The notes: generated from the sequence alone by a model not told the origin. Positions 15,901 to 36,291 are shown, counted from the first letter of the stretch. The stretch: DNA of 64,000 nucleotides from Yuukianura sp. NJ FZ-2021 (GCA_046563655.1 CM102283.1:5146001-5210000); one strand, 5' to 3'. Translations and numbers: made by a program.

Positions 15901-18186
15901 AGACGTCGAGGGTGCTGGTGTTTGGTATTATATGCACTAAAACACTTTTCCATTTCACATCGTACAGTTTGCTGCTGAATACGTTGTATTTTGACTCAAG
16001 TTAAGACGTAGAAGATTCCTGCGTTAACTCAAAAAAGGTCAGCTTGCTGGACTAAAAATAGCAACACGCAGAAGATGCTAAGAAATTGTTCTCAGCACAC
16101 ACTCTGGGAGTGGTGATAATTTCCGACGTCGAGGGTGCTGGTATTTGGTATTTTATGCACTAAAACACTTTTCCATTTCACATCGTACAGTTTGCTGCTG
16201 AATACGTTGTATTTTGACTCAACATAAGACGTAGAAGATTCCTGCGTTAACTCAAAAAAGGTCAGTTTTCTGCACTAAAAATTGCAACACGCAGAAGATG
16301 CTAAGAAATTGTTCTCAGCACACACTCTGGGGGCGGTGATAATTTCAGACGTCGAGGGTGCTGGTGTTTGGTATTATATGCACTAAAACACTTTTCCATT
16401 TTACATCGTACAGTTTGCTGCTGAATACGTTGTATTTTGACTCAAGTTAAGACGTAGAAGATTCCTGCGTTAACTCAAAAAAGGTCGGCTTGCTGCACTA
16501 AAAATAGCAACACGCAGAAGATGCTAAGAAATTGTTCTCAGCACACACTCTGGGGGTGGTGATAATTTCAGACGTCGAGGGTGCTGGTGTTTGGTATTTT
16601 ATGCACTAAAACACTTTTCCATTTCACATCGTACAGTTTGCTGCTGAATACGTTGTATTTTGACTCAAGTTAAGACTTAGAAGATTCCTGCGTTAACTCA
16701 AAAAAGGTCAGCTTGCTGGACTAAAAATAGCAACACGCAGAAGATGCTAAGAAATTGTTGTCAGCACACACTCTGGGAGTGGTGATAATTTCAGACGTCG
16801 AGGGTGCTGGTGTTTGGTATTATATGCACTAAAACACTTTTCCATTTTACATCGTACAGTTTGCTGCTGAATACGTTGTATTTTGACTCAACATAAGACG
16901 TAGAAGATTCCTGCGTTAACTCATAAAAGGTCAGTTTGCTGCACTAGAAATTGCAACACGCAGCAGATGCTAAGAAATTGTTCTCAGCACACACTCTGGG
17001 GGTAGTGATAATTTCAGACGTCGAGGGTGCTGGTATTTGGTATTATATGCACTAAAACACTTTTCCATTTTACATTGTACAGTTTGCTGCTGAATACGTT
17101 GTATTTTGACTCAAGTTAAGACTTAGAAGATTCCTGCGTTAACTCAAAGGAGGTCGGCTTGCTGCACTAAAAATAGCAACACGCAGAAGATGCTAAGAAA
17201 TTGTTCTCAGCACACACTCTGGGGGTGGTGATAATTTCAGACGTCGAGGGTGCTGGTGTTTGGTATTATATGCACTAAAACACTTTTCCATTTTACATCG
17301 TACAGTTTGCTGCTGAATACGTTGTATTTTGACTCAAGTTAAGACGTAGAAGATTCCTGCGTTAACTCAAAAAAGGTCGGCTTGCTGCACTAAAAATAGC
17401 AACACGCAGAAGATGCTAAGAAATTGTTCTCAGCACACACTCTGGGGGTGGTGATAATTTCAGACGTCGAGGGTGCTGGTGTTTGGTATTTTATGCACTA
17501 AAACACTTTTCCATTTCACATCGTACAGTTTGCTGCTGAATACGTTGTATTTTGACTCAAGTTAAGACTTAGAAGATTCCTGCGTTAACTCAAAAAAGGT
17601 CAGCTTGCTGGACTAAAAATAGCAACACGCAGAAGATGCTAAGAAATTGTTGTCAGCACACACTCTGGGAGTGGTGATAATTTCAGACGTCGAGGGTGCT
17701 GGTGTTTGGTATTATATGCACTAAAACACTTTTCCATTTTACATCGTACAGTTTGCTGCTGAATACGTTGTATTTTGACTCAACATAAGACGTAGAAGAT
17801 TCCTGCGTTAACTCAAAAAAGGTCAGTTTGCTGCACTAGAAATTGCAACACGCAGCAGATGCTAAGAAATTGTTCTCAGCACACACTCTGGGGGTAGTGA
17901 TAATTTCAGACGTCGAGGGTGCTGGTATTTGGTATTATATGCACTAAAACACTTTTCCATTTTACATTGTACAGTTTGCTGCTGAATACGTTGTATTTTG
18001 ACTCAAGTTAAGACTTAGAAGATTCCTGCGTTAACTCAAAGGAGGTCGGCTTGCTGCACTAAAAATAGCAACACGCAGAAGATGCTAAGAAATTGTTCTC
18101 AGCACACACTCTGGGGGTGGTGATAATTTCAGACGTCGAGGGTGCTGGTGTTTGGTATTATATGCACTAAAACACTTTTCCATTTC
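942..18186. repeat. Satellite array 2, 223-bp monomer, ~77 copies
   Basis: TCAGCACACACTCTGGG at 942, 1165 and onward every 222-223 bp; monomers differ at a small set of recurrent variant sites. Confidence 0.98.
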
Positions 18187-18545
18187 AGTAGGTACAATGT
18201 CTGCACAATACGGAAAACTGTCAATCAAATCATCAACTAATATCGATTATCTGTCAGCCCCCCCTCTCATTAATAGTCCCCCTAGGAGTATATAGAGGGC
18301 CCCTTCTGGAGCCCCTCTTTCCCCTTAGTGTTTAGTATAGTGCACTACCCTTATCCCTACCGACGTCAGCCCCCTGAATAACAGAACACCCCTCCCATCA
18401 TCAATACAACGAATCAATTAATTAATCAATTAACAACCAATCATCAAATTATTTACTTGCCAATCAGATTTTTATTAGTCACAAATAATGGGGGGGGGGG
18501 GAGTGGGCGTGTGTAGGTTAATTAAACTTAATTAACATAATTAAC
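18187..18545 (+). repeat. Left TIR (~355 bp) of the Maverick-like element
   Basis: Reverse complement of ~20046-20397 with few differences; contains a G-run and repeated AATTAA palindromes at the inner end. Confidence 0.93.
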
Positions 18546-18607
18546 ACTTAGGTGCTTAATTAAGTTGGGGAGTTTACACCCACCCGGAATTAACTTCACT
18601 ACCCCCA

Positions 18608-19153
18608 ATGGACCCCCTCCCCCGACTAAAACGCTACCCATCACCTCATACCGCCAAGTTCGCTCAGTTACGTTCCAGATTCCAAACAAATCACACCGAA
18701 ATGGCCGGCATTAACCCGTTGTATCTCGACTATGTTATTACTACTTCTCCTCCCCCGGAAAAGTCAGAAGACAAGCCCAGTTATGTACGGGGTAAAAACG
18801 GGAAACTTTCTTGCCCGTACTGCCCAAAACAATTTGCTAGGAAGGACACTGTAAAACGGCATGTTACCAACTTGCATTCACTGCAAGTTGGAGGAAGAAA
18901 AACGGAAAATGCGTCCACCGAGGAAATGGAAGAAAGTTCGCCTCACGGCAGTCCAAGCGGCCCGACGTCTGAAGATGAAGAAACTTCAGTCGATGAAAGT
19001 GAAAGTGGGTCACGTTTTGAATTGGAGGACGACGCTGAGATTACAGTGGAGACAATTAAGCTCATTCTACACTTGCTTAGGAATGCTCAAGCTGGGACTC
19101 AAAGAGTATCAAAAAAACTTTTATATCAAATAATAATGGAGGCTGATCCTTAA
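18608..19153 (+). CDS. Small C2H2 zinc-finger protein with acidic Ser/Glu tract (likely start at ATG 18701, 150 aa)
   Basis: CPYCPKQFARKDTVKRHVTNLH matches C-x2-C-x3-F-x8-H-x4-H; uninterrupted ORF just inside the left TIR; Inr-like TCAGTT at 18664 upstream of the second ATG. Confidence 0.75.
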   Translation: MDPLPRLKRYPSPHTAKFAQLRSRFQTNHTEMAGINPLYLDYVITTSPPPEKSEDKPSYVRGKNGKLSCPYCPKQFARKDTVKRHVTNLHSLQVGGRKTENASTEEMEESSPHGSPSGPTSEDEETSVDESESGSRFELEDDAEITVETIKLILHLLRNAQAGTQRVSKKLLYQIIMEADP

Positions 19154-19667
19154 CTGTGTAAGCATTGGTACACTGTCCGGCAAAAAAAAATCATAACTCT
19201 ACTCCAGCGCAAAAGAACATCGGAAAGGTAATGAGAATGAAACAGAGTTTAGCGGTTAAGAAGTTTCCCCGAGTGCTGTTATACCCATTTTTTTAGTAAC
19301 AAGTTTCGCGGTTTTTTTTTTGTGATATAGTTGGGAGGCTACCTCTGCTGCTTTCGCCTATGCTACTTTTTAAGGCCTTAACGTGAAGGGGAGAAAATCC
19401 AAGGGCCCCCAGTTGATGGAACTGCAGTAAATGAGAAGGCCCTTGCACCATACTTTTCCACAATCGCATCTCCATTACGCTGCATAATCTACACAATGTC
19501 CTGATGTCAAGTCGAAACAACCCTCAACCACAATCGCGGGCAGTCAGTTTGCACACAACCTTTTGTCAAAGCAAACTTTAAGCCATAAACGTAAAAGGGA
19601 GAGAATCCAACACTTTCCCCGGTAAACGGAACCGCAAGGAAAACAAAGCCCACACTATCGTGCGGAC

Positions 19668-19740
19668 CACTCACCCCGCTCCACTGCACTGCACTCCGCT
19701 CCACCCCACCTCACCCCGCCTGACTCCACTCCACTCCGCC
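19668..19740. repeat. Degenerate 5-bp microsatellite (CTCCA/CTGCA/CTCCG)
   Basis: ccactcaccccgctccactgcactgcactccgctccaccccacctcaccccgcctgactccactccactccgcc. Confidence 0.6.
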
Positions 19741-20045
19741 GCAGCAGAAATTTGAAAAACAAAAAGAGTGAAAGAAAACGTTTATGCATCCAAGGGCTCC
19801 ATACTACATGGAATGCAGGGAAATACATCAACACCAATGTCCAATATCGATACAGCGTCAATCCTCAACACTCACCGGAAGTCGGTTTACACACAACCCT
19901 CCCACCGGCTAAAATTAACACGCTCGACTTAATTTCTACAACCTTCATAGTTAAATTCCCCGCCCCCTGCAAAATTGACGACTTTACACTGGCCAATAGG
20001 ACTTCATAAAAATTTGATTGACAAGTGAATAATTATGTTAATTAA

Positions 20046-20397
20046 GTTAATTAGGTTAATTAAGTTTAATTAACCTACACCCGCCCCCCCCCCCCATTAT
20101 TTGTGACTAATAAAAATCTGATTGGCAAGTAAATAATTTGATGGTTGGTTGTTAATTGATTAATTAATTGATTCGTTGTATTGATGATGGGAGGGGTGTT
20201 CTGTTATTCAGGGGGCTGACGTCGGTAGGGATAAGGGTAGGCACTATACTAAACACTAAGGGGAAAGAGGGGCTCCAGAAGGGGCCCTCTATATACTCCT
20301 AGGGGGACTATTAATGAGAGGGGGGGCTGACAGATAATCGATATTAGTTGATGATTTGATTGACAGTTTTCCGTATTGTGCAGACATTGTACCTACT
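20046..20397 (-). repeat. Right TIR of the Maverick-like element
   Basis: Reverse complement of 18187-18545. Confidence 0.93.
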
Positions 20398-21578
20398 CAT
20401 TTCACATCGTACAGTTTGCTGCTGAATACGTTGTATTTTGACTCAACATAAGACGTAGAAGATTCCTGCGTTAACTCAAAGGAGGTCAGTTTGCTGCACT
20501 AAAAATAGCAACACGCTGAAGATGCTAAGAAATTGTTCTCAGCACACACTCTGGGTTCGGTGATAATTTCAGACGTCGAGGGTGCTGGTGTTTGGTATTA
20601 TATGCACTAAAACACTTTTCCATGTCACATCGTACAGTTTGCTGCTGAATACGTTGTATTTTGACTCAAGTTAAGACGTAGAAGATTCCTGCGTTAACTT
20701 AAAGGAGGTCAGTTTGCTGCACTAAAAATAGCAACACGCTGAAGATGCTAAGAAATTGTTCTCAGCACGCACTCTGGGGGCAGTGATAATTTCAGACGTC
20801 GAGGGTGCTGGTGTTTGGTATTATATGCACTAAAACACTTTTCCATTTTACATCGTACAGTTTGCTGCTGAATACGTTGTATTTTGACTCAAGTTAAGAC
20901 TTAGAAGATTCCTGCGTTAACTCAAAAAAGGTCAGCTTGCTGCACTAAAAATAGCAACACGCAGAAGATGCTAAGAAATTGTTCTCAGCACACACTCTGG
21001 GGGTGGTGACAATTTCAGACGTCGAGGGTGCTGGTGTTTGGTATTATATGCACTAAAACACTTTTCCATTTTACATCGTACAGTTTTCTGCTGAATACGT
21101 TGTATTTTGACTCAAGTTAAGACGTAGAAGATTTCTGCGTTAAATCAAAGAAGGCAGTTTGCTGCACTAAAAACAGCAACACGCAGAAGATGCTAAGAAA
21201 TTGTTCTCAGCACACTGGGGGTGGTGATAATTTCAGACGTCGAGGGTGCTGGTGTTTGGTATTATATGCACTAACACACTTTTCCATTTCACATCGTACA
21301 GTTTGCTGCTGAATACGTTGTATTTTGACTCAAGTTAAGACGTAGAAGATTCCTGCGTTAACTCAAAGGAGGTCAGTTTGCTGCACTAAAAATAGCAACA
21401 CGCAGAAGATGCTAAGAAATTATTCTCAGCACACACTCTGGGGGCGGTGATAATTTCAGACGTCGAGGGTGCTGGTGTATTGTATTATATGCACTAAAAC
21501 ACTTTTCCATTTATATCGTACAGTTTGCTGCTGAATACGTTGTATTTTGACTCAAGTTAAGACGTAGAAGATTCCTGC
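20398..21578. repeat. Terminal ~5.3 monomers of satellite array 2, more diverged
   Basis: Same 223-bp unit with more private substitutions and small deletions; ends abruptly after AAGATTCCTGC. Confidence 0.95.
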
Positions 21579-22082: not shown

Positions 22083-22365
22083 AATTGATACATTTAGACT
22101 GGCCTACCGCAAAACTGTGGACAAACTGAGAAACAGTTCATGGAATTGAAGCTCTGAAACGTCGCTGACAATTTTCAGTGGGAATATGAGTTCCTGTTTT
22201 GTGCATGAGTTGCATCAAAATTGTCTTGGCAATTTTACCGTTTAATTGAACCAAAATTATGTTAAAGTTTTGAGGCCCAAAATATCTGCATTGAATTGAT
22301 GTTGTTAATTTGGTGTGCACAAAATGCACAAAATTGAAAGTTAAGAAGAAGGTGGTCGAATATCG
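22083..22365 (-). mobile_element. Old degenerate HINE fragment (3' part)
   Basis: AATTGATAC...CCGCAAAAC...GAGAAAC...TTCATGGAATTGA is colinear with 23063-23300 and 34015-34250 but more diverged. Confidence 0.7.
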
Positions 22366-22368
22366 TTT

Positions 22369-22600
22369 TTAGTCTTCTGGAGACGCATGTCTACGACATG
22401 CTGAAGAACACTATTGATACGACTTTGTCTGGCTGTCTGTCTGTCTGTCCGTTCGCTTTTTTAGTATCTTTTGGGCTAAAACATAAGCTCCATTTTGTCC
22501 GGGGGGTTATGTATGCCTCAAGTGTTTTCATTAAGTCTACATTGCACTCAAAGTGTTATATTAACAACGTGGAAATGGGCGGCCACTTTATGCACCCTAA
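22369..22600 (+). mobile_element. HINE/DINE-1-like element, 5' part only, interrupted at a TAA
   Basis: TT-AGTCTTCTGGAG 5' end, hairpin, (CTGT)n microsatellite, then core matching the other copies up to TGCACCCTAA. Confidence 0.85.
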
Positions 22601-22908
22601 CGCTCGGTACGGACTTACCGTGCTGCTGCCTTGACGATGCTTTGCTGCGCTGTTTTTGTTAAAAAACACCGATCCTAACTTACTTCTGCCTTCCCCGTGA
22701 TGTGCTGCCTCATTTTGGCAAGGCAACGACAGAGCAAGGAAAAGCATCCTAACTTCCCGTTTTGCTTACCGTGCTCCTGCTCTTTCCGTGCTCTTTTGAA
22801 AGTAGGGACGGAAGCAACTTTTGAGGAAGCACGAGCAGAGCAAACTTGCTTTTTTGGAAACAATTGTTCGTTTTGTGATCAATGTTAGTTTTGCTAACAT
22901 CAAGTATC

Positions 22909-24055
22909 ATGGCTGATGGATTTAGCACAGTTTCGGTGGAGCTGGAACAGCAGCTCATTGACGGGGTCAGGGACAGGTTGTGTATCTGGGACAAATCAAG
23001 TGACACGTACAAACAAGGTAGCTCAAGACCGATGCTCAAGGGTTGAGCATAGGTCTTCTGGAGGGAGTTGACAATTGATACGACTTTTAGATCCGCCGGC
23101 CGCAAAACCGTGTAACAATAAGGTGAGAAACCGTTTTCATGGAATTGATGCTCTAAAAGGTCGTTAAAAATTTTCAGTGCGAATGTGAGATGTTATTTTG
23201 TGCATGAATTGCACTAAAATTGTCTTGGCAATTTTACAGTTTAATTGCACCAAAGTCATGATTTGGTTTTGAGGCTCACAATACCTCCACTGAATTGATG
23301 TTGTTAATTTCTTGAGCAAAATACACACTGTATTTTCGATTGTTGGCATGGCAATACTTTATACATAACAGCGTTAATTTAACTGCATCATAATGTTGTT
23401 CAAATTGGGCTCAGATTTCACTCTGCTCAAAATTATTTTGATGCACAATCGTTCTCAAGCATGCACAAACTTTCAGTTGTGTGCATGCATCACAATTCAA
23501 CGTTTATGTATCCCAGTTGGTCATAACTGTGCAAAATGCACAAAAATGAACGCTAGAGTGAGGGGTCGAATTTGGCTTGTAAAAATCCAAATTATAAAAA
23601 TTTCTAGTAACTGCAGATTTGACCCCTGTCATGCACTATTCACATATTAAACATTTAAGCCGGATTTTATACCCTCTGATCAGTCTTAATTTAACAACGC
23701 AAATAAACATACTATCAGAAAATGACAGAGTCAAAACTTCGTTGTTTAAATATATTTTGAGTGTAATCGAAACCAAAATGTTTCCGGGAAACGACTGCAC
23801 TTAGGGTGCATAAACTGGCCGCCCATTTCCAAGTTGTTAATATAACACTTTGAGTGCAATGTAGACTTAATGAAAACACTTTAAGCATACATAACCCCCC
23901 GGACAAAATGGAGCTTATGTTTTAGCGCAAAGTATCCTAAAAAATGTGACAGACAGACAGACAGACAAAGTCGTATCAATAGTCTCCAGAAGACTAAAAC
24001 AAGGTTCTCCGAGAAAATGCATGGAAGGAAGTCGGAGTGTCTCTTGGAATCACTG
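22909..24055 (+). pseudogene. MADF (Myb/SANT-like) domain exon split by a HINE insertion
   Basis: 22909-23013 reads MADGFSTVSVELEQQLIDGVRDRLCIWDKSSDTYK; 23998-24055 continues in frame NKVLRENAWKEVGVSLGIT, then a possible GTAAAG donor; matches the MADF pattern LI..VR..PCLWD.....YKN......AW.EV...LG. Confidence 0.82.
23014..23997 (-). mobile_element. Complete ~1-kb HINE/DINE-1-like non-autonomous Helentron
   Basis: 5' subTIR (CTCCAGAAGACT-AA on +), (GACA)n, 3' subTIR GTCTTCTGGAG and ATGCTCAA-GGG-TTGAGCAT stem-loop; inserted in an A/T run; removal restores the MADF frame. Confidence 0.88.
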
Positions 24056-25111
24056 GTAAAGTTTACGTTTTAGTCTTCTGGAGACGCACGTCTACGACGT
24101 GCTGAAGAAGACTATTGATACGACTTTGTCCGTCTGTCCGTCCGTCACACTTTTTAGGACCCTTTCCACTGAAACATAAGCCCCATCGCAGTCGGGGGGT
24201 TTTGTGTGGCTCAAGTGTTTTCATTAAGTCTACATTGCACTCAAAGTGTCATATTAACAACGTATAAATGGGCGGCCACTTTACGCACCCGCAGTAAATT
24301 CGTTTTCCGAAAACGTTTTGGTTTCGATTACACTCAAAATATATTCAAACAACGTAGTTTTGACCCTGTCATTTTCTGACAGTATGTTTACTTACATTGT
24401 TAATTTAAGTCTAGTTAGACGGTAAAAAATCCGGCTTAAATGTTTAATATGTGAATAGTGAATGAAAGGTGTCAAATTTGCATTTACCAGAATTTTTTTT
24501 ATAATTTTGAATTTAAATAAGCGATACTCGAGGCCTCACCCTTAGCACTTAATTTTGTGATAATGCACACTAATGACTGCCAAAAATACATAAACATCGA
24601 ATTGTGCATTTACTTCAACCGATTTTGATTCTTCAGAAACGATATTCGACCTCTTTTCCTATACGTTCAGTTTTGTGCATGTTGCGCATTTATTGCACAT
24701 GAATGTAAAATTGTGCAGTTATTTTGACGCTGGGTAATGGACGTTGTCATGACAACACTGGTAATGAATTATGTGCATGTTGTTTAGTAAGTTGTTTTAT
24801 AGCGACGTGTCTAAGAAATTTTAGTCTAAAAATTTTTTATGATTTTGAATTTAAACAAACGATATTCTACCCCTCACCTTCGATCTTCAATTTGGTTTCT
24901 TTTTTGTTTTTGACAATTCTTTGCCTGTATCATTCAAGTGTTTAACTTATAGTTTAATTTACAGTTCCCAGTTATATTTTAAGTAGTACATAATTTCAAT
25001 CTTTGGTACAAGTTTGTAAAGCTTCATCGGGTAAGAAAATGATTTCTAATCTTATTTGTTACTATCACGCTATACCAAATTAGGTGTTACTTCATTATTT
25101 CAGATATTATC

Positions 25112-28100
25112 ATGTCAACGCGACAACAACGAGCCAGAGCGAGGCATCGACGGCAGTTCCTACGAGCAATCGAATCTAGCAGAGAAGAAGAACAGGGTAG
25201 AAATAGCATTGCTCACTGTGTTGTCCGGCAGGATGAAGAGAACCGTCGTGCAGAACAAGAACGAAATACTGAGGATCATCGTCAACTCCGGGAGAATGAA
25301 GAGTATCGACAACTGGAACAACAACGGGATACTGCATCTCATCGTCAACTACGTGAAAATGATGACTACAGAGAAATGGAACAAAAACGGAATACTGCAG
25401 CTCATCGTCAACTACGTGTTCATATTCATGATGAGTCCTGGGAGTCGGTGGTTGAGGTCTTCGAAGAAAAATGCAGGGAAGGCCCGTCACATATCTGTAT
25501 CTCCTGTGGTGGACTTTGGTTCAAGAAATCTATCAAGCAGCTGCGGCGATCCGACTGTACTCGATTGGATGACAACTTTCTGAACGCTGTTTTCTCTACC
25601 CAACTGGAAGGAAACTTTTGCATTACTTGCCACGCTGCTGTGAAATCTGGTCGTAACTCTCGACTGGATTTAACCAATGGTCTCCAGTTTCCGGCAGTAC
25701 CACCTGAAGTAGCGTCTTTGACACGGCTGGAAGCCAGATTAGTGTCGCCGTACCATGTCTTTCAAGCGATTTGGGCTGTACAAGGACCACAAGGTACATT
25801 TTGATTGTTCAAAAATTAGCGCAGAATTTGATTCGTTTGGCTAATAACAATATTTGTAGGTCAATTGAAGACGAAGGGACGGATTGTGAATGTTCCAGTT
25901 TCCGTGACAAATATTGTTCAAAGTCTGCCTCGCCTCCCTTCAGACGATTCAGTCCTGCATCTTCGGCTGGCCCGTCAGATGCATGTTGAGAAGAATTATA
26001 CTTCCGGAAACATCCGTCCAGAAAAAGTTCTTCAAGCCGCTGAAGTTCTCTGCCAATCTCAGTTGTACACCCAACATGGTGTGAAAGTCTCCAATTCCTG
26101 GCTGGCGGATTCTCGTCGAGAATTGACTTCAGTGGACTCTAGCTTGGAGAGTCGGCTCGAAAACTCTCTTATTCTCTCGAGCGAAGTACATTCGGGAGGA
26201 GAATTTGAAGAATCCACCACAAATGAAACTCTGCTGACCGATAGCGCTGGGCTTCGGATGGCCCCTGCAGAGGGAAATCGCCCTGTTTCTGTTCTCCTGG
26301 ACGAAGACTCAGTATTTCTAGCTTTTCCTCAGTTGTTCGCCGGACACAAGATGAACCCCATTTTTGATGGGAAGAAAATCTCAAGAGCCGATATGTTTAA
26401 ATCGTTTGCTAGGAACAAAGACCGAAGAGCGGCAGAGTCAGTGGATTTTCTTTTGTATATGGCAAAGACTCTGGAAATTGCAAGAATTACTAGTAATCGT
26501 TCGATTCATTTGAGGAAAAGACGAGTCAATGGTGAGCTTATAATTCCAACCGCTGGACAAGTCTTGCACCAGACTTACGTCGATGGCCTCATCCGGGACG
26601 ATAACGCTTATAAAGTTCTGGCGGGAATTAGAAACGCAGGAACTCACTGGAAGAACGAGGGTAACAAAGTTCGGGCAATGATTCGTACCTTTGGCATCGC
26701 TACTTTGTTTGTAACAATCAGCGCGGCAGAGATGAAATGGAACGAGTTACTTGTTTTACTGAAGAAAATTCTGGATGGCGTTGAAATCTCTGAAGAGGAA
26801 GCCGAGCAGTTACCGCATTCTGAAAAGGCGCTTCTCATTCAACGCGACCCGATCACTTGCGCACGTTATTTTGACAACCGTTACTCCGCGCTGAAGGCAA
26901 CTTACCGCTCTCGAAATGGTCCTTTCGGTTGCCACGAAATTCGCCACTTCTACGAAAGGGTGTAGTTCCAGCATCGCGGAAGCCCGCATGTGCATGCGAT
27001 GTTTTGGCTGTCGGACGCTCCAATTTTCAATCCAGAGAATGAATCGCATGACGACGTTACTGCTTTTATTGACAGTATGATAACTTGCAGTACGAACTAC
27101 CCTTCGGAAGATCCAATCAATGGGCTACTATCGCTCCAGACTCATCGGCATACACATACTTGCTACAAAAGGACGCACAAGGGAGTGAAATGTCGCTTCG
27201 GTATTCCTTTTTTCCCAATGGACAAAACTCGTATTCTTTTGCCATTGGAAGATCCGTCAGACTTCAAAGACCTCAAGCTACAGCATAAAGCTATTCGAGA
27301 ATTCTTAGAAAATCGGATGCTTGACCGGGGAATGTCGTTTGAGGAGTTTCTGGAAGCAATTTCTTGCGACCTTCCTTTGTATCTACGAGTAATTCAATCG
27401 AAACTGAAGAAGCCCAACGTGTATCTGAAGAGAAGCCCTTGTGAAATTTATATCAACGCCTACAATGAGAAGATATTACGGCTTCAGAAATCTAATATGG
27501 ACATTCAATTTATCCTTGATCCCTACGCATGTTGTAGCTACATCGTGGACTATATCAATAAAACCAATCGAGGGCTTTCCGAACTGTTGCGGAACGTGGT
27601 GGAGGAAGTGAGGAAAGGTAATGCCCCCCTGAAAGACAGTCTACAAGCTATTGGAGCGGCTCATAACTTGAACAGCGAACTTTCGGCCCAGGAAGCAGCC
27701 TACAATGTTTTGCAAATGCCAATGAGCTATTCTTCGGAAAAATGTATCTTTGTTCAGACTGCTCCTGCCAGCCATCGTACAAGAATGTTGAAGTCTCAGG
27801 CGGATCTATCCCAGTTGGACCCCGATGACCAGAACATTTTCTTTACTAGTCCAACTGATCACTATGCTCAACGACCACTTGCATTGGAATCACTGAATCT
27901 TGCTCAATTCTCTGCATGGTATGAATATTCCAAAACTATGAGAAAACAGGTAGTCGAACCACACGAAGAAGACGACGCATCTCCGAAAGAAGAAACGGCA
28001 ACCGAAGTTTACAAGTTGAGAGACGGTTCTGGATACGTACGAAAGAGGAAATTTGCAAAAGTCATTCGCTTCGTGCGTTACAACAAAGAAAAAGATCCAG

Positions 28101-30738
28101 ACAACTTTTTCCGGGAACTCTTGATGTTGTATAAGCCATGGAGAAACGAAGAGCAAGAGTGTGGGGAAAATACGGACTATCGAAAAATTCTAGCTGAAAA
28201 TATTGACTTGATCACCAGAAGCAGAAAAGAATTTAATTTCTTTGAAGATTGTATTCTTGACATTGCGATGGAGGAAGTTCTCGCTAGGCCACCGGAGAAT
28301 GAAGATGACTTGGATGAAAATCAGCCTTCGGCCGAAGACCTGCGCGAGTATCGTCTGGAAGATTCTTCAGGCACTAACGCAGTTGACTTTGGAAGCTACG
28401 AAAGACGACCATTTGCTGAAACTTTCAAGAATCCACAGTTGACTTCCAATGATGAGTACTGGGCGCTACTCGCATCTTTGAACGACGAACAAAGGGATTT
28501 GGTGTATCATACTTTTGATCAAGTGAAGCGGCATGACAATATACAATTTCAGATCTACTTGAAAGGAGGAGCGGGTGTCGGAAAATCCCATGTTATAAAG
28601 ACATTGCATCAGGGGCTCGTCAGAATTTTCAACTCTGATGTCAATCGTAATCCGGACAGAATCTGTGTATTACTGGTGGCACCCACTGGAAAAGCGGCCT
28701 TCAACATTGGAGGCTCCACTCTTCACACTGCATTTCAGTTACCTGTTAACCAACGTGAAGCTGGAACCCTTTCGGCCGATGTTTCAAATACGATGGCTGC
28801 AACTTACTCGGAACTGAAGGTCTCACATTCTTTCACATATTTTATGTTCTTAGCTTAATCTAACTTAACATGCTGATTTTCAGATCGTTATATGCGACGA
28901 AATTAGCATGGTGGGCGAACATTTGTTGGAACAAGTGGACAAGCGCTTACGTGATCTATTTACTTCAAGCGCACCTTTTGGCGGAATCTCTTTCATTGCC
29001 GTTGGTGACTTCTACCAGCTACCACCAGTTCTGGCTGTCCCGTTGACGCATGGCACGATGAGCAACTCCATCTCATCTTTATTCCATCGGCCGCTCTGGC
29101 ATCACTTTCTTGTGCACGAGCTGACCACAATCATGCGCCAAAGCGAAGATATCGCCTTTGCTGTGGCCCTCAATAACATGGCCAGGGGAGTGATGACTGA
29201 TTCAGATAAGGAACTGATGCGAAGCCGGTGCTTCGACGCCCTGCCAACGGAAGTGGCGGAACTGAGACCTATCCACTTCTTCCAGACCAATGCTGCAGTG
29301 ACCGCGTTCAACGAAATGTTCCTTCAGCAGATGCCAGGAGAACTGATCCTCAGCAGAGCTACCGATACTGTTCGTGGTGATGTCCCTCAGACGTCAAAAG
29401 TCCGTCTTCTGCAAAGGTTTCAGACGAAACCGTTGAACGAAACAATGGGCCTTCCTCTGCAACTTCAATTGAAAATTAACGCCCGATACATGATGACAGC
29501 TAATGTGGATTGTTCGGATGGATTAGTGAATGGGGTGACAGGAATTCTACGACGAATTGACCTTGGTGTCGCGGTACAAGATCCAAATGACCGCATTCCA
29601 CTTCGACTATGGCTGGAGTTTGAAGATACTAGAAGTGGTCAACAATTGCGCCGCCGGTACGAGTCAATTGTAGAAAATTTGGGCGTTGAGTCAACTTGGA
29701 CGCCAGTGGAGCTACTCACACAAGAGATACATCAAAAGAATGCCAGCATAAAAATCACACGGAAGCAGTTTCCTCTTGTTCCTGCAGAAGCAATCACCAT
29801 TCATAAGAGCCAAGGAATCACGTGTCAAGCGTAAGTATATAATAAGTATTCCAATTTATTTTACAATTTAAGCATTCCAATTTATATTGTGCAGTGCTGT
29901 ACTCCATATTGATCGTACTCGCCACATTTCTCGAGCTTTGATCTACGTCGGCTGTTCTCGACCTACGAAAGCCAGTGGCCTTTACATTATGGGGGACTTC
30001 AGGCCTACTAAACCAATTTCACCGACAAGTCCTCTCGCCTTGGAAATGGCTCGTCACGAAACCATGAAGCTGGTCCCAGTCTTTCAATCGCTTCATAAAA
30101 GGGATGATGGTTTAATCCAGTTCCTTTACCACAACGTCCAGTCATTGCCAAAGCATTCCGCAATTTATTCTTCGGATGCAAGTTACAAAATGAGCGACAT
30201 TCTTCTCTTTGGTGAAACATGGACTCTGCCGGAAGACAATGTCACAATTGGAGATCATGTGAAAATCTGCAGTGTCGATTGTGTGACAGAAAGGCGACCA
30301 CTCGGAGCCAGAATTTATTTGCGGCAGCATTTGACAAATCGCATCCTGAGTACTACTACTAGATTTGTCGAAGATGAGCATGGAAGTTGCAGCTGTGTAG
30401 CCATGAATTTTGCTGGAACAAACGTAATTGGAATTTACATCAGCCCACGTTTTCGTTGGTGTCTCTTTACCTCCATAATTTCATCTCTAATCAACTCCCT
30501 TGGTGGCTCAAGGACGATCGTCGCCGGAGACTTCAACGTTCATTTCAATCTCATTGCTTCAGCTGAACGCAAGTCGATGTTGGATCTTGGACGACAACTT
30601 CGTTCTACTGACTTGCCTACGACAAAGTTCGGAACCCAAATCGACGCGGTCTTTGCTTCATTTGAATTAGATGCGATTGGATTGTACACGTCCGCGACAT
30701 CTATCCACGAGCCAATTTGGGGAAGGTTCTCTCAATAA
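25112..30738 (+). pseudogene. Helentron Rep/Pif1-helicase/APE-endonuclease transposase (~1810 codons, 4 exons) with one in-frame stop
   Basis: Exons 25112-25793, 25860-28819, 28884-29830, 29895-30738 joined by 64-66 bp GT-AG introns in consistent phase. Motifs: CISC/CITC Zn sites, GQLKTKGRIVNVP, LFVTISAAEMKW, *FQHRGSPHVH (TAG at 26963-26965), YIVDYINK, GGAGVGKS, APTGKAA, DEISM, GDFYQLPPV, TIHKSQG, then HNVQSL, ETW, GDFNV, IDAVF, SIHEPI. Confidence 0.93.
25252..25420 (+). repeat. 60-bp (20-aa) coding tandem repeat, ~3 copies, in the transposase N-terminus
   Basis: EQERNTEDHRQLRENEEYRQL / EQQRDTASHRQLRENDDYREM / EQKRNTAAHRQLR; CATCGTCAACT recurs about every 63 bp. Confidence 0.8.
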
Positions 30739-31184
30739 TTATTTCAATAATCATATATTAAACATTAATAACCTTCAAAATGTAAATAAATCGCACCATC
30801 TCAAGTGTAATACACTTAAATTTTACATTTAAAGAGTTTTACTACTTAAACGCTACGAAGAATTTTTAAGAAATAAACCTTTTTCTGTTCTATACAGTTG
30901 GTAGAATGCAGAAAAATTAAAGCTCAGCTCTAGCCTTCAACTAGAACTTCAACTAGAATAAAGTTCAACTTATTGTTACAAACTTCAGTAAGTTTTCCTA
31001 GTTTGTGTATAGTTTGTAAAAAAAAACTCAGGTTTAACTCTAGACTCGAACTTGAAACGATCTTAGCAAAGAACTTCAATTTCTAATAAATCAATACCAT
31101 AAACACTTTTGTTGTATTTATTAGTTTAATTAGTTTCGTTCTTGTAAATTGATCACTTTGTATGATAATTGATTCATATTTTCA

Positions 31185-32442
31185 CTATTGTAATAGTCGA
31201 TTCAGCGTATCTGCCTCCGCGGCTTCGAACCACTCTAACAAAAGCTTGGCCGTGCTATGATCTTTTCCCACTAAGATCAAATCGCCAGGATTGCAGTCAA
31301 TTGAGTTGACACCATTGTAACTAGAAATCTTCACGAGCTTGAACAAGATAATTTCAAAAGGAGCAACTTGCACGGTTTCGGTCATATTATTCCATAGCTT
31401 TGCAGTAAACTTTCCAGTCTTGTCCACAAGAGTAAGTTGACGAAGTCTGCATGTTGGGAACTCTTTGACATCTTCAATTTCAATTACCAGACCCGCCATG
31501 TCAACATATTGCCCGGCTGACATCAATTTGAGGTCTTCCGAATCAATCGGAGTGATCTTTACCACATGAGCAGCTCCTTTGGGTGCAGTGATGACGGTGG
31601 TTTCAGTGCTACTGGCATCAAAGGATGAGTTTGTCAATTTGTTTCTGTTGTCCTTTGGCCGAAGTAGAAAATTTTCGATGCGCACAAATGAGTTCACCTA
31701 AAACATTTTATGGATTTTATAGTTAATTATTAAAATATTGTTAAAACAGTTTTACAATGAAGAATGTACTCTTACCTGGAGCAGCGATTCCCATTCTGGT
31801 TTCATTCCAAACAATGTAAACTGGATCTCCCCGGACTCGTCACCAAAAACAAAATGCTGCAGTTGGCCTCCGTTCCCGTACGCCATTGGTCGTGCAACCT
31901 TCAACACGAGGACTTCGATTACACGAGATGTAACTGGGAGGTTAGGATGCAGCTGCTTCACAGCGATCACGGGAAGTTCAGCTGGGTCCTCGTTTGATTT
32001 CACTTGAGCTTTTTCAATCTGGCTTTTCCACTGCTGAAACGGCGACATGCAGCTTTGAGTACCGCTAGAACCAGGCATGGGTTCAATCAGAGCGGATCCA
32101 CTTTGATTGGCTTAATAAATAAAAATGATTAGTCATACTACTGTAAAAGCGACATTGGTTTTCAAAGTACATTTAACAATTACCTGAAGGTTGTACATTA
32201 TGTTCCGCACTTGAAGTATTGGATTCAAGGCTCTCACTCACATCACTGGCATTTTGCGCTTGATCAATAGCTGCATCACTCGTTTCGATTTCTATTTAAG
32301 AAAAATACGAGTTCCAAAAAATGTATACCAATGATACCAAATTTGTATTATTTTATGAATTACCTTCTGCATCGACCCATTTTGGAATCTTCTGAGAAGG
32401 CTCAGCTTTGGAATTAGAAGATCCCTTCTTCTTAGGCGGCAT
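31185..32442 (-). CDS. RPA70-like ssDNA-binding protein with two OB folds (DBD-A and DBD-B), ~344 aa, Helentron cargo
   Basis: Exons 32442-32364, 32291-32184, 32110-31776, 31697-31185 splice in frame with GT-AG introns; starts MPPKKKG (NLS-like); FVFGDESGEIQFTLF, VDMAGLV, LVDKTGKFTAKLW, KISSYNG and AKLLLEWF parallel RPA1 DBD-A/B motifs. Confidence 0.85.
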
Positions 32443-33052
32443 ACTAACGCCTTACGCAATAGATACTTGAAGAAAAAGTTGAAGAGTTACAAAACTTCAA
32501 TGTAGATCACGTTGGTCACGAGAATCTGAACGTACTTGAACGGATCACAACTTTTGAAAAATGATTTTCGTTAATAACTTCGAAACGCTGCTTAGTGCTA
32601 ATTCAGATAAACATTAAAAAATAAACATCAGTTTTGTTGTGATGAAGACTTATTTACTGTGTGGGCGGATACTCAATTTTAAGTAATTAGCCATGGTATT
32701 TTATTTAACTCCAATAGTTACAAATTTGAAGAATGTCGTCAGACAGTTTTCTAGATTGATTCGTGACATATTTTAAATTCTTTTTACATGAAAATTATGT
32801 TTTTCTCAAAAAAAGTTATCAATTTTTGAAGTGTTGGAAACTACATTTTTCACGTTTTTCAACTAGCCAAGGTTTCCCTGACAACATATATGACAGTGTT
32901 TCGTATTGTTTATTACTATTTAAAACTACTCTACTCGTGAAACAAATCTCTGCCATGATGTCATTCGAATTTCAAAAATTAGAGTTTTTCGAATTTCAAA
33001 AGTTGGTTTACGTTTTGACAGATTGTAGACGATTAAACACAATATTTTTACA

Positions 33053-33715
33053 ATGTCGCGTCTCATATATTTCGACGGCATACACAGCGACGAATTTCAG
33101 AAAATTGTCGCTGACTATAAGCATGAGAACAAGAAGAATTTTCATTTGGTACGGGAAGGTGACATCGCTGTGGAAGTCGAAGGGCAGAAAGTCGGAGTTT
33201 GCAAATCGTTGAAGCAACTCTACAGCATTAAGATCACAAGCTTTCCATCATTGACATTGACAGAGAAAAAAAAAATTCTACTTCCAATTGTGTTTTACAC
33301 ACACGGTGATGTTCCCATGCACTTGTTCGACCATGTCTCTCTGCTCTACCTGGATCTCGACAAAGGCTTGGCGACGTACTACTGTCAAAATCATAAGTCA
33401 ATTTTTGAAAGAGCGGCCAAGACAAATGTGATGATCAGAATTCGCGACTGCTTCCCAGGAATCAAGATACGCTTTCGCAAACACAAATTTGTGAATGTCA
33501 TGAAGCAATGTTATCCGGATTCTTGCTCGCTATTGGCTCTTTGGTTCCTGTTTAAGATTGTAGAAACTGATGGAGAGAAAATACAGGATATGAAACTGCC
33601 AACATTTATGCAACTACATTCTTTCCGAAAGAAGTTGAAGTTGAAACAGGATCAGCATCAGAAAATGCAACCGAAGAAAAAATTGAAGCGACTGACAACG
33701 ATCTCCGAAACTTGA
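33053..33715 (+). CDS. Divergent Ulp1/SENP-like (C48, clan CE) cysteine protease, 220 aa, Helentron cargo
   Basis: ILLPIV...HVSLLYLD....ATYYC...KQCYPDSCSLLALWF follows the order and spacing of Ulp1 iPi...HW.L..iD....i.yyDS...Q.N..DCG.F; the canonical Asp position reads Cys; basic C-terminal tail. Confidence 0.6.
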   Translation: MSRLIYFDGIHSDEFQKIVADYKHENKKNFHLVREGDIAVEVEGQKVGVCKSLKQLYSIKITSFPSLTLTEKKKILLPIVFYTHGDVPMHLFDHVSLLYLDLDKGLATYYCQNHKSIFERAAKTNVMIRIRDCFPGIKIRFRKHKFVNVMKQCYPDSCSLLALWFLFKIVETDGEKIQDMKLPTFMQLHSFRKKLKLKQDQHQKMQPKKKLKRLTTISET

Positions 33716-33961
33716 ATCAAATCGATATGCTGTAATTATGTTCATTTACAAATAACTCAGTCCTTCAATGTATTGTAACGTTTCTCTTGTATTGTATACT
33801 TTGTAGCGTTAGATTAGAAATAAAAGATTCAATTCGCTTTTCCAAGCTTTTTCGACAACGCCATTTTTTTGTAAGTCGTATTAATTGTCAACTACCTCCA
33901 GAAGACCAATGCTCAACCCTTGAGCATTGCCCTACCTTGTTTGAGAAAAGTACTTCTAAAA

Positions 33962-35128
33962 CAAGGTAGGGCAATGCTCAAGGGTTGAGCATAGGTCTTC
34001 TGGAGGGAGTTGACAATTTATACGACTTTTAGATCGGCCGGCCGCAAAACCGTGTAACAATAAGGTGAGAAACCGTTTTCATGGAATTGATGCACCGAAC
34101 CATCGCTCAAAATTTTCAGTGCGGAGGTGAGGTTCTATTTTGTGCATGATTTGCACCAGAATTGTGTTGGCAATTCTACCGTTCAATTGCACCAACATCA
34201 TGTTCCTGTTTTGAGGCTCACAATACCTGCACTGAATTGATGTTGTTAATTTCTTGAGCAAGATACACACTGTATTTTCGATTGTTGGCATGGCAATACA
34301 TCATACATAACAGCGTTAATTTAACTGCATCATAATGTTGTTCAAATTGGGCTCAGATTTCACTCTGCTCAAAATTATTTTGATGCACAATGGTTCTCAA
34401 GCATGCACAAAACTTTCAGTTGTGTGCATCATGCACAAAACTGACGTGGGGGAGGGGGGTCGAATGTCGATTCCTAAAAATCAAAATTGGTTCATGTAAA
34501 TGCACAATTCAACGTTTATGTATCCCTGTTGGTCATAAGTGTGCAACATGCACAAAAATGAACGCTAGAGTGAGGGGTCGAATATGGCTTGTAAAACTCG
34601 AAGTTATAAAAATTTCTAGTAACTGCAGCTTTGACCCCTGTCATGCACCATTCACATATTAAACATCTAAGCCAGATTTTCTACCCTCTAGTTAAGTCTT
34701 AATTTAACAACGTAATTAAACTAACTGTCAGAAAATGACAGGATCAAAACTTCGTTGTTTAAATATATTTTGAGTGTAATCGAAACCAAAATGTTTCCGG
34801 GAAACGACTGCACTTAGGGTGCATAAAGTGGTCGCCCATTTCCACGTTGTTAATATTACACTTTGAGTGCAATTTAGACTTAATGAAAACACTTGAGGCA
34901 TACATAACCCCCCGGACAAAATGGAGCTTATGTTTTAGCGCAAAAGATACTAAAAAAGCGAACGGACAGACAGACAGACAGACAAAGTCATATCAATAGT
35001 CTTCTTCAGCACGTCGTAGACGTGCGTCTCCAGAAGACTAAAAAGCGAACGGACAGACAGACAGACAGACAAAGTCGTATCAATAGTCTTCTTCAGCACG
35101 TCGTAGACGTGCGTCTCCAGAAGACTAA
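33962..35128 (-). mobile_element. Complete HINE/DINE-1-like element, tail-to-tail with the Helentron, with its 5' 87 bp duplicated in tandem
   Basis: 3' end CAAGGTAGGGCAATGCTCAAGGGTTGAGCAT at 33962; body colinear with 23014-23997; the 5' terminus appears twice, ending at 35039 and 35126. Confidence 0.88.
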
Positions 35129-35154
35129 AAGGAATGATGAAAAACTTTGAATAG

Positions 35155-36291
35155 GGTATAGTTTTAGTGATGAAGGAAAGTACGTGAAAACTGACGAAGA
35201 AGCAGCTCATGACCTCTACATCGCCCTGACCCAGTTCTTTACTCTCTTTGCCCAATATGCTCTAAGGGATTTTTATCTTACTGGGGAGTCATACGCAGGT
35301 CAAATACTTTTTAACTTTTTCAAGGTAGTTTTGTTTTTTATGCTGCCAATTGACAAAATTGTTCATTCCAATATTGTAATTTTTAGGAAAGTACATTCCA
35401 GCTTTGGCTGTTAAAATTCATAGAGAGAACAAACACTCGCCAAAAGTTAGGATGAACTTGAAAGGAATGGCGATTGGAAACCCATTAACAGACCCAGTGC
35501 ACAACACTGGTCAATACTCAACATTCTTGTATGACGTCGGACTTATTGATGAGCGGGAAAAAATGTACTTTGAACAGCGACAAAATGCTTCCAAAATCGC
35601 TGCACAACAGGGCCACTGGGCCATGTCGTTTGAGGTCAGGGCGTCCACAAATGAAAAAATTGAAAATACAAATGAAAATTATAGCTTGCCATGTTTTAAA
35701 AAAGTTTTAAACGGTTTTCTTGTTTGGACATAGATTTTCGGTAGTTTGATTCTAAGCAGCCGGAACAATTTTACATACTTTATAAATGTAACCGGATGCA
35801 CTTTTTCCTACAACATTGTGCAGTGTAATAAGCCACCTGACCAGAAATACTTTGGAGAATACCTTCAGCAGTCCAGCGTTCGACGCGCCATTCACGTTGG
35901 AAGTCAAGAATACTTTCCCAACATCAACAGGAAAGTTGTGGACGGTATTATTGGAGACATCATGAAGTCAGGACTTCATCGGGTGCGCGAAATACTTGAT
36001 GCTTCCGAAGGCTATAAAGTTCTATTTTATTCTGGCAATCTGGACGCTACTGTTCCAACCATCGTGACAGAGGAAATGCTGCTGCAACTGCGTTGGAGTG
36101 GGGCCAATGTGTTCGCAACAGCGCAGAAAAAACAGTGGCGAGCAGGAAAAAAAGTCGTCGGCTATGTTCGGAAGGGAAAGAATTTGACGTTGTTGATTGC
36201 ACGGAATGCTGGACACTTTGTTCCTTACGATCAACCTAAAGTCGCTCTGGACATGATCAACACCTTCACATCCGGAAGAGAGTTTGCCTAA
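35155..36291 (+). pseudogene. Serine carboxypeptidase S10 (CPVL/venom serine carboxypeptidase-like), 3' three exons only
   Basis: Exons 35155-35298, 35387-35634, 35734-36291 splice in frame: GYSF..., GESYAGKYIP (Ser), NLKGMAIGN, YSGNLD (Asp), AGHFVPYDQP (His); signal peptide and WLQGGPG exons not seen in the window. Confidence 0.85.

Follow-up and report, generated by a model that had tools for sequence, protein, structure and literature searches.

Which protein is encoded by the last gene of a Helentron that seems to lack a protease, and what might it do for a rolling-circle transposon? The question is raised by a 64,000-nucleotide stretch of the genome of Yuukianura sp. NJ FZ-2021 (GCA_046563655.1 CM102283.1:5146001-5210000; the whole stretch is hereafter called the window), in which an earlier reading of the sequence, the original prediction, had proposed a transposon-borne clan CE protease with a non-canonical triad as a candidate anti-silencing factor. 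The open reading frame (ORF) concerned, here called ORF3, lies at 33053-33715 on the plus strand. We report that it is part of a Helentron, that its homologues are under purifying selection and have kept a His and a Cys at putative catalytic positions, and that its protein probably adopts the clan CE fold. Our preferred interpretation, which we put forward tentatively and at a little less than an even chance, is that this protein serves the Helentron as an accessory factor, namely a thiol protease or isopeptidase that acts on a ubiquitin-like modifier within the nucleus.

The gene and the Helentron that carries it

ORF3 is a single exon that is translated without interruption into a 220-residue protein (P0001), and its open frame, at 228 codons, is far beyond chance length for DNA of 36% G+C (about 0.01 such frames expected in the window by our own estimate). 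The translation contains the motifs quoted in the original prediction, namely FDHVSLLY with His94, ATYYCQNH with Cys111, and MKQCYPDSCSLL with Gln152 and Cys158 (MKQCYPDSC), as well as the Lys-rich C-terminus, RKKLKLKQDQHQKMQPKKKLKRL, which had also been correctly described. This basic tail (33626-33694, +) resembles a nuclear localization signal (NLS) by pattern only, and the homologues end in clusters of the EKRRRK type. An AATAAA that could serve as a poly(A) signal can be read at 33819-33824 (+), ~105 nt 3' of the stop codon.

The Helentron that carries ORF3 as its last (third) gene is a rolling-circle transposon of the autonomous type and nearly intact. In it, a Rep/PIF1-helicase/AP-endonuclease gene, an RPA-like gene and ORF3 are followed by a 156-bp palindrome and subterminal inverted repeats. 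The first gene (25115-30738, +) has Pfam matches to DUF6570, Helitron_like_N (E = 1.5e-11), PIF1 (E = 5.8e-16) and Exo_endo_phos, the last being a weak match to Exo_endo_phos_2 (E = 1e-3). Its three frame changes coincide with short GT..AG introns of ~63-66 nt, recognized by their junction sequences, and a Rep domain, a PIF1-type helicase and a C-terminal, weakly matched AP endonuclease thus lie in one gene, as in Helentrons. The only true defect in this gene is an in-frame TAG (26963-26965, +) within the Rep domain (YERV*FQHRGSPHVH), and the copy, with its Rep broken by this stop codon, is young but transposase-dead. Two RPA-like OB-fold ORFs (REPA_OB_2, E = 9.5e-9), which are pieces of one gene, occupy 31185-32111 on the minus strand and are divergent from ORF3. 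The part of the Rep gene that encodes the N-terminus also contains a 63-bp tandem repeat (25253-25418, 2.6 copies), which gives the peptide repeat EQ.RNTA.HRQLREN.

The palindrome (33873-34028) begins 158 bp past the end of ORF3 and was found by an inverted-repeat search; its 75-nt arms are 95% complementary and stand 6 nt apart, forming the Helentron 3' stem-loop, and one arm recurs at 23032-23086. The left subterminal repeat region (24061-24693) is inverted with respect to the right one (34423-35130), which includes two tandem copies of an 87-bp unit with a (GACA)n microsatellite. When contigs from four DNA sequencing runs were placed over 24000-35200, the element's ends, including the palindrome stretch, were 10-100 times deeper than its coding interior, and some contigs contained deletion joints in which 24628 was joined straight to 34415. 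In the run from another organism (X4), no contig reached the bin 32976-33349, a gap that carries no weight as evidence. High-copy non-autonomous relatives thus have the same ends as this Helentron. Autonomous Helentrons have been described as having abundant HINE/DINE-1-like non-autonomous partners, subterminal inverted repeats, a 3' stem-loop and internal tandem repeats (Thomas, Vadnagara & Pritham, PMC4067079), and the domains, repeats, palindrome and contig depth in the window match that Helentron/HINE pattern. The claim that the ORF is transposon-borne is therefore upheld by the Pfam domains of its neighbors, the inverted repeats, the palindrome and the contig depth at the ends. Besides ORF3, 37 ORFs of 70 aa or longer between 21561 and 35411 were scanned with Pfam, and neither these nor the large element ORFs matched an OTU, UCH, SET or C48 domain, leaving ORF3 as the only protease-like gene of the element.

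Relatives, selection and predicted fold

The ORF3 family is small. A phmmer search of 1.84 billion representative proteins returned three relatives only (P0002-P0004, E = 4.6e-29 to 2e-11), each a singleton cluster of metagenome origin, and a word-index protein search found nothing with P0001 alone and only P0003 when alignment A1 was used. A pattern scan of metagenome contigs added five loci, all from one data set (L001-L005, alignment A2), which are repeated copies 76-96% identical to each other: the homologue in L001 is intact over its full length, that in L002 carries a frameshift, and L004 and L005 lack the 5' end. The contigs of L001-L005 are short (1.0-2.5 kb) and contain no Rep or RPA matches, and a Helentron context can only be presumed for these loci. 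Among the three divergent copies L001, L002 and L003 the ratio of nonsynonymous to synonymous substitution rates (dN/dS) was 0.21-0.23, while the youngest pair, L004/L005, had a ratio of 2.6 on ten changes, as expected of decay after insertion. The homologues are thus under purifying selection (dN/dS of ~0.22), which indicates that the protein family is maintained by selection while riding on a repeated element. The gene model of P0003 differs in architecture, with an N-terminal Cys-rich CxCxxxxC motif (residues 60-80) joined to the N-terminal half of an ORF3-type domain (residues 205-306). We take this motif to be post-SET-like; it has no Pfam SET match. SET genes have been reported in Phytophthora Helentrons (PMC4067079).

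An AlphaFold2 model of P0001, built on an 8-row alignment (A3), places a strand at residues 74-80, His94 directly before a strand at 95-101, a strand at 106-111 that ends in Cys111, a helix at 116-133, a strand at 138-143, and Cys158 opening a helix at 157-171. In the model, this order of secondary structures is that of clan CE. When the model was compared with the PDB using Foldseek, 41 of the 41 matches listed were CE-type proteases or RavZ (best E = 7.6e-4, prob 1.00, TM ~0.3-0.38), among them ChlaDUB/Cdu1, monkeypox I7L, SnCE1, SENP1/2/3/5, Ulp1, Den1/NEDP1 and NopD. VIA-align, which is independent of Foldseek and was run against 48,161 chains, gave CE-type proteins at ranks 1-18 (Z 5.3-7.6), including SseL (7.6), NEDP1 (7.4, with 162 of 210 residues aligned), XopD (7.4), the African swine fever virus (ASFV) protease pS273R (6.9), SENP5 (6.1) and Ulp1 (5.3). 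In BFVD, the named top matches were Ulp1 or SUMO-specific proteases of giant viruses (best E = 1.8e-5). Furthermore, the language-model (Atlas) neighbors of both P0001 and the 35%-identical L001 protein fell in clusters labelled Peptidase_C48, C5, C57 or YopJ-type. Taken together, the structure searches and the language-model neighbors make a clan CE fold probable for a protein that sequence searches place in no family, and the predicted fold of the original note finds support in the PDB and BFVD matches of a low-confidence model. The structural family assignment is positive but weak.

Several results count against this assignment, and with it against a protease function. P0001 has no Pfam match, and the profile search that the original prediction had suggested as a check failed, with Peptidase_C48 (PF02902) matching 0 of 8 sequences (homologue pieces) at E<=10. 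Searches of the PDB by sequence and by profile returned chance matches only (E ~1), and P0001 had no match in PHROGs. An hhalign comparison with E. coli K-12 ElaD gave a probability of 0.07, with an ElaD side that was effectively a single sequence, since the matches listed for its reference profile, at least 120 of them, were all 99-100% identical ElaD. The model itself has a mean predicted local distance difference test score (pLDDT) of 48.5, a predicted template modelling score (pTM) of 0.44 and values <50 for residues 1-71, and a model from the single sequence was useless (pLDDT 35). In VIA-align, best Z scores of 7-8 are typical of models that have no true match, and the Atlas recognition values of 2290 and 2081 lie below the threshold of 2300 and are weak evidence only.

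These results could conceivably mean that ORF3 is unrelated to clan CE, an accessory protein of the Helentron whose low-confidence model looks like a widespread kind of alpha/beta sandwich and nothing more. The uniformly negative sequence and profile searches, the pLDDT of 48.5, a best Z (7.6) within the range of unmatched models, the appearance of gelsolin-like and GNAT folds from rank 19 and the Atlas values below threshold would fit such a protein. However, a generic sandwich would not be expected to put a single clan at ranks 1-18 of the 48,161 chains, and Foldseek agrees in both PDB and BFVD. Moreover, the catalytic positions of the clan are occupied by the two conserved polar residues, spaced much as in Ulp1, and two homologues only 35% identical lead to the same clan by language-model features. 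We therefore consider a protein outside clan CE unlikely. An OTU protease, the type known from other Helentrons, is not indicated either: neither ORF3, its homologues nor the element ORFs have a Pfam OTU match, and the ORF3 family has His then Cys, while OTU proteases have Cys before His.

The active site and what the protein may do

The candidate catalytic residues of ORF3 are His94 (codon at 33332-33334, +), Cys111 (33383-33385, +), Gln152 (33506-33508, +) and Cys158 (33524-33526, +), with successive spacings of 17/41/6 residues. In yeast Ulp1 the corresponding residues are His514, Asp531, Gln574 and Cys580, with spacings of 17/43/6 (bioRxiv 10.1101/2025.11.21.689808), and the Ulp1-like spacing that the original prediction had seen for His, Gln and Cys is thus confirmed. 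Conservation was counted over informative homologues, leaving aside the tail of P0003, which has diverged, and the read-through parts of L004/L005. His94, which would act as general base, is conserved in 5/5; Cys158, which starts helix 157-171 and would be the nucleophile, is conserved in 6/6. Both residues do persist in the family as they should in a protease. Cys158 also lies within YPDxCxLLALW, the longest invariant block of the family. ORF3 therefore has the features of clan CE in that His precedes Cys, His is at a beta-strand and Cys at a helix N-terminus in the model, and both are conserved.

The rest of the site departs from Ulp1, and these departures, like the search results above, speak against a conventional protease. 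At His94 +17, where strand 106-111 ends, 4/4 informative homologues have a Cys, which is Cys111 in the window copy. In clan CE, the strand that follows His would be expected to end in an Asp, Glu or Asn, and this canonical third residue of the triad is missing here. By spacing and secondary structure, Cys111 would be the equivalent of Asp531 of Ulp1. The Cys that had been noticed at the usual Asp site is thus shared by the homologues, and the non-canonical triad appears to be a property of the family and not an accident of the window copy. Acidic residues are found at His +21 in the metagenome copies, where the window's protein has Lys. At Cys158 -6, the oxyanion-hole position of Ulp1 Gln574, only the window copy has Gln (1/6), while the other five have T or A, with a one-residue alignment gap at this place; the Gln of the original prediction thus appears not to be conserved. 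None of the five informative sequences has Trp after His94 (V, L, M, L and I instead), so that the HW dipeptide of Ulp1 becomes H[VLMI] in 5/5. In Ulp1/SENP proteases, the Trp of this His-Trp pair clamps over the Gly-Gly tail of the modifier. Additionally, the four core sequences agree in 42 of 137 core columns, and the family is known from three independent lineages only, which makes the conservation of the two or three key residues, His and Cys among them, suggestive but no more than mildly significant (~0.03-0.09 by chance). Finally, because the Rep gene of the window copy has a stop codon, the intactness of ORF3 here is no evidence of current function.

One explanation for such a site is a pseudo-enzyme, in which a CE fold without catalysis binds a ubiquitin-like modifier or a host factor, or in which His94, Cys111 and Cys158 form a metal or redox site. 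The invariant Cys in place of Asp/Glu/Asn, the variable Gln position and the missing Trp would all be explained in this way. A His with two Cys is a common metal-binding set, and the fold matches include cobalt-bound SENP1 and oxidized-Cys Ulp1 structures, which indicates that an active site of this type can bind metal or be oxidized. On the other hand, pseudo-enzymes usually lose the catalytic His or Cys, whereas no informative homologue has lost His94 or Cys158, on which thiol-protease chemistry depends, and the nucleophile helix is the most conserved block of the protein. Purifying selection does not separate a protease from a pseudo-enzyme. We regard the pseudo-enzyme as rather unlikely, while giving it more weight than the other alternatives considered here.

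In the protease interpretation that we prefer, ORF3 would consist of a minimal clan CE cysteine-peptidase fold of ~200 residues, like that of Ulp1, SENP, NEDP1 or adenain, followed by the basic NLS-like tail, and the protein would be a thiol protease or isopeptidase active in the nucleus. The nucleophile would be Cys158 at the helix N-terminus and the base His94 at the start of the beta-strand, and the enzyme may strip a ubiquitin-like modifier (SUMO, NEDD8 or ubiquitin) from proteins of the host or of the element. It could thereby fill the accessory niche that OTU proteases occupy in other Helentrons and Ulp1 domains in MULE and Ginger1 elements. Catalytic activity, substrate, nuclear location and a benefit to transposition are in each case what we infer from the features described above. 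A bolder proposal, which we think improbable though worth stating, is that ORF3 founds an undescribed, Helentron-specific clan CE family in which the triad Asp has given way to an invariant Cys and the Gln and Trp have become dispensable; such a His/Cys/Cys site may belong to a SUMO/ubiquitin-like deconjugase gated by redox state or metal, or to a pseudo-protease that binds the modifier. In either case ORF3 would stand in for the OTU gene of other Helentrons, and its targets in the nucleus would be modified host factors of replication, repair or chromatin silencing.

Clan CE also contains enzymes with other tasks. ORF3 might be a processing protease for the element's own proteins, comparable to adenain, poxvirus I7L or ASFV pS273R, and might, for example, split Rep/helicase from endonuclease. 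Viral processing proteases do rank high among the fold matches (monkeypox I7L at Foldseek ranks 2-4, ASFV pS273R at Z 6.9, the adenovirus protease at Z 5.1), and cleavage of Rep/Helicase/Endonuclease subunits has been raised as a possible role of the Helentron OTU protease (Thomas et al., PMC4067079). However, proteases of ubiquitin-like modifiers (NEDP1, XopD, SENPs) match the fold equally well or better, and ORF3 is encoded apart from, not within, the supposed polyprotein; we judge a processing role to be quite improbable. Less probable still, and in our view hardly tenable, is a CE-clan acetyltransferase of the YopJ type. Such an enzyme is suggested by VIA-align matches to AvrA (Z 5.0), HopZ1a (Z 4.5) and PopP2 (Z 4.3) and by Atlas clusters labelled Acetyltransf_14, yet the YopJ-family matches stand below at least 20 protease matches, and neither ORF3 nor its homologues have a Pfam match to Acetyltransf_14.

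Satellite surroundings and comparison with known systems

The Helentron had been described as sitting between satellites, and this holds in so far as two arrays flank it, although neither directly adjoins it. The left array consists of 77 copies of a 223-bp satellite (96% matches) at 942-18187 and 20398-21578, and the right array of a 182/364-bp satellite at 40979-64000. The Helentron is separated from the left array by a second HINE-like element and from the right array by fragments of a serine carboxypeptidase gene.

These surroundings bear on the proposal that ORF3 is a deSUMOylase or SUMO binder that would counter piRNA-guided heterochromatin silencing of the element. The CE fold, the NLS-like tail and the satellite-rich location are compatible with it, and so is the Cys-rich motif of P0003, presumably post-SET-like despite the missing Pfam SET match. 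SET-domain genes are also carried by some Helentrons (PMC4067079). Against it, the Trp residues through which SENPs recognize the Gly-Gly tail are absent from the family. Furthermore, in VANDAL21, the plant transposon in which anti-silencing has been dissected, a transgene without VANA and VANB still de-silences (PMC5735166), so that VANC alone suffices there. An anti-silencing role for ORF3 seems very improbable.

The second HINE-like element (22300-24000) is non-coding and lies just to the left of the Helentron. It contains the palindrome arm copy at 23032-23086, a 393-nt inverted repeat shared with 24109-24501 and a (GACA)n-containing repeat at 22366-22600. On the other side, serine carboxypeptidase (Peptidase_S10) exons at 35151-36291 (+) cover profile positions 98-420 and start ~20 bp past the right Helentron repeat; the N-terminal part of this gene was not found, and the gene has either been truncated by insertion or is a carried fragment. 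The 223-bp satellite is interrupted at 18188-20397 by an insert of higher G+C content with a 197-codon ORF that has a single weak C2H2 zinc-finger match, and six further ORFs, to the right of the element and in this insert, had no Pfam match. Positions 1-841, before the 223-bp satellite, hold a separate 127/256-bp tandem repeat (93-94% matches). The 182-bp satellite at 40979-64000 is organized in 364/388-bp higher-order units with embedded variants of ~205 bp.

How ORF3 relates to known proteases depends on which of its features are compared. With Ulp1/SENP/NEDP1 (Peptidase_C48) it shares the predicted fold, the order of His then Cys, their spacing and a minimal domain of ~200 residues as in NEDP1, while the ORF3 family differs in being unmatched by PF02902, in having Cys for the triad Asp, in the apparent rarity of the Gln and in having no Trp after His. 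The OTU proteases of Helentrons (Poulter 2003; PMC4067079) resemble ORF3 in being encoded by a small accessory protease-type gene apart from Rep/Hel/EN with a presumed role in the ubiquitin pathway; they differ in fold and clan, in having Cys before His, and in having a Pfam family of their own. Viral CE processing proteases (adenain, C5; poxvirus I7L, C57; ASFV pS273R, C63) and the proteases of Polinton/Maverick elements share with ORF3 the predicted fold and the carriage by selfish elements. The viral enzymes cleave virion polyproteins, whereas no capsid or polyprotein genes were found among the Pfam-scanned ORFs of the element region around ORF3.

Other transposons provide closer parallels. 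Ulp1 domains occur in MULE (KI-MULE/VANDAL) and Ginger1 elements, and Ginger1 transposases are reported with OTU or Ulp1, never both (PMC2836005). A HELIANO analysis lists 20 domains as stable components of Helitron-like elements, one of which is Peptidase_C48 (PMC11417382). As ORF3 would be, these are clan CE protease domains stably carried by DNA transposons; in contrast to ORF3, which is free-standing, invisible to Pfam and non-canonical in its active site, they are Pfam-recognizable and often fused to a transposase. Helentrons themselves carry OTU, RPA, SET and other genes, and Table S3 of the same Helentron study lists no CE-type gene (PMC4067079). Since Ulp1- and OTU-type proteases in transposons have already been published, a transposon-borne CE protease is of a known kind. 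A free-standing, Pfam-undetectable CE protease in a Helentron was not found in the passages of the literature covered (from PMC4067079, with its Table S3, PMC11417382 and PMC2836005), and what is new here is that the gene stands free in a Helentron, is invisible to profile libraries and belongs to a family with an invariant Cys for the triad Asp.

Transposon superfamilies have repeatedly gained proteases of the ubiquitin and SUMO pathways: OTU in Helentrons and Ginger1, Ulp1 in MULEs and Ginger1, and UCH and herpes-tegument-type deubiquitinases in Helitron-like elements. Some of these genes escape surveys that rely on domains, as a Helentron seemingly without a protease here carries a gene with a predicted CE fold that Pfam does not see. 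The invariant Cys in place of the triad Asp also offers a simple mutational handle (Cys111, together with His94 and Cys158) on whether such a passenger is an enzyme or a binder. If ORF3 did act on SUMO in the germline, it would have a bearing on how transposons counter host defence.

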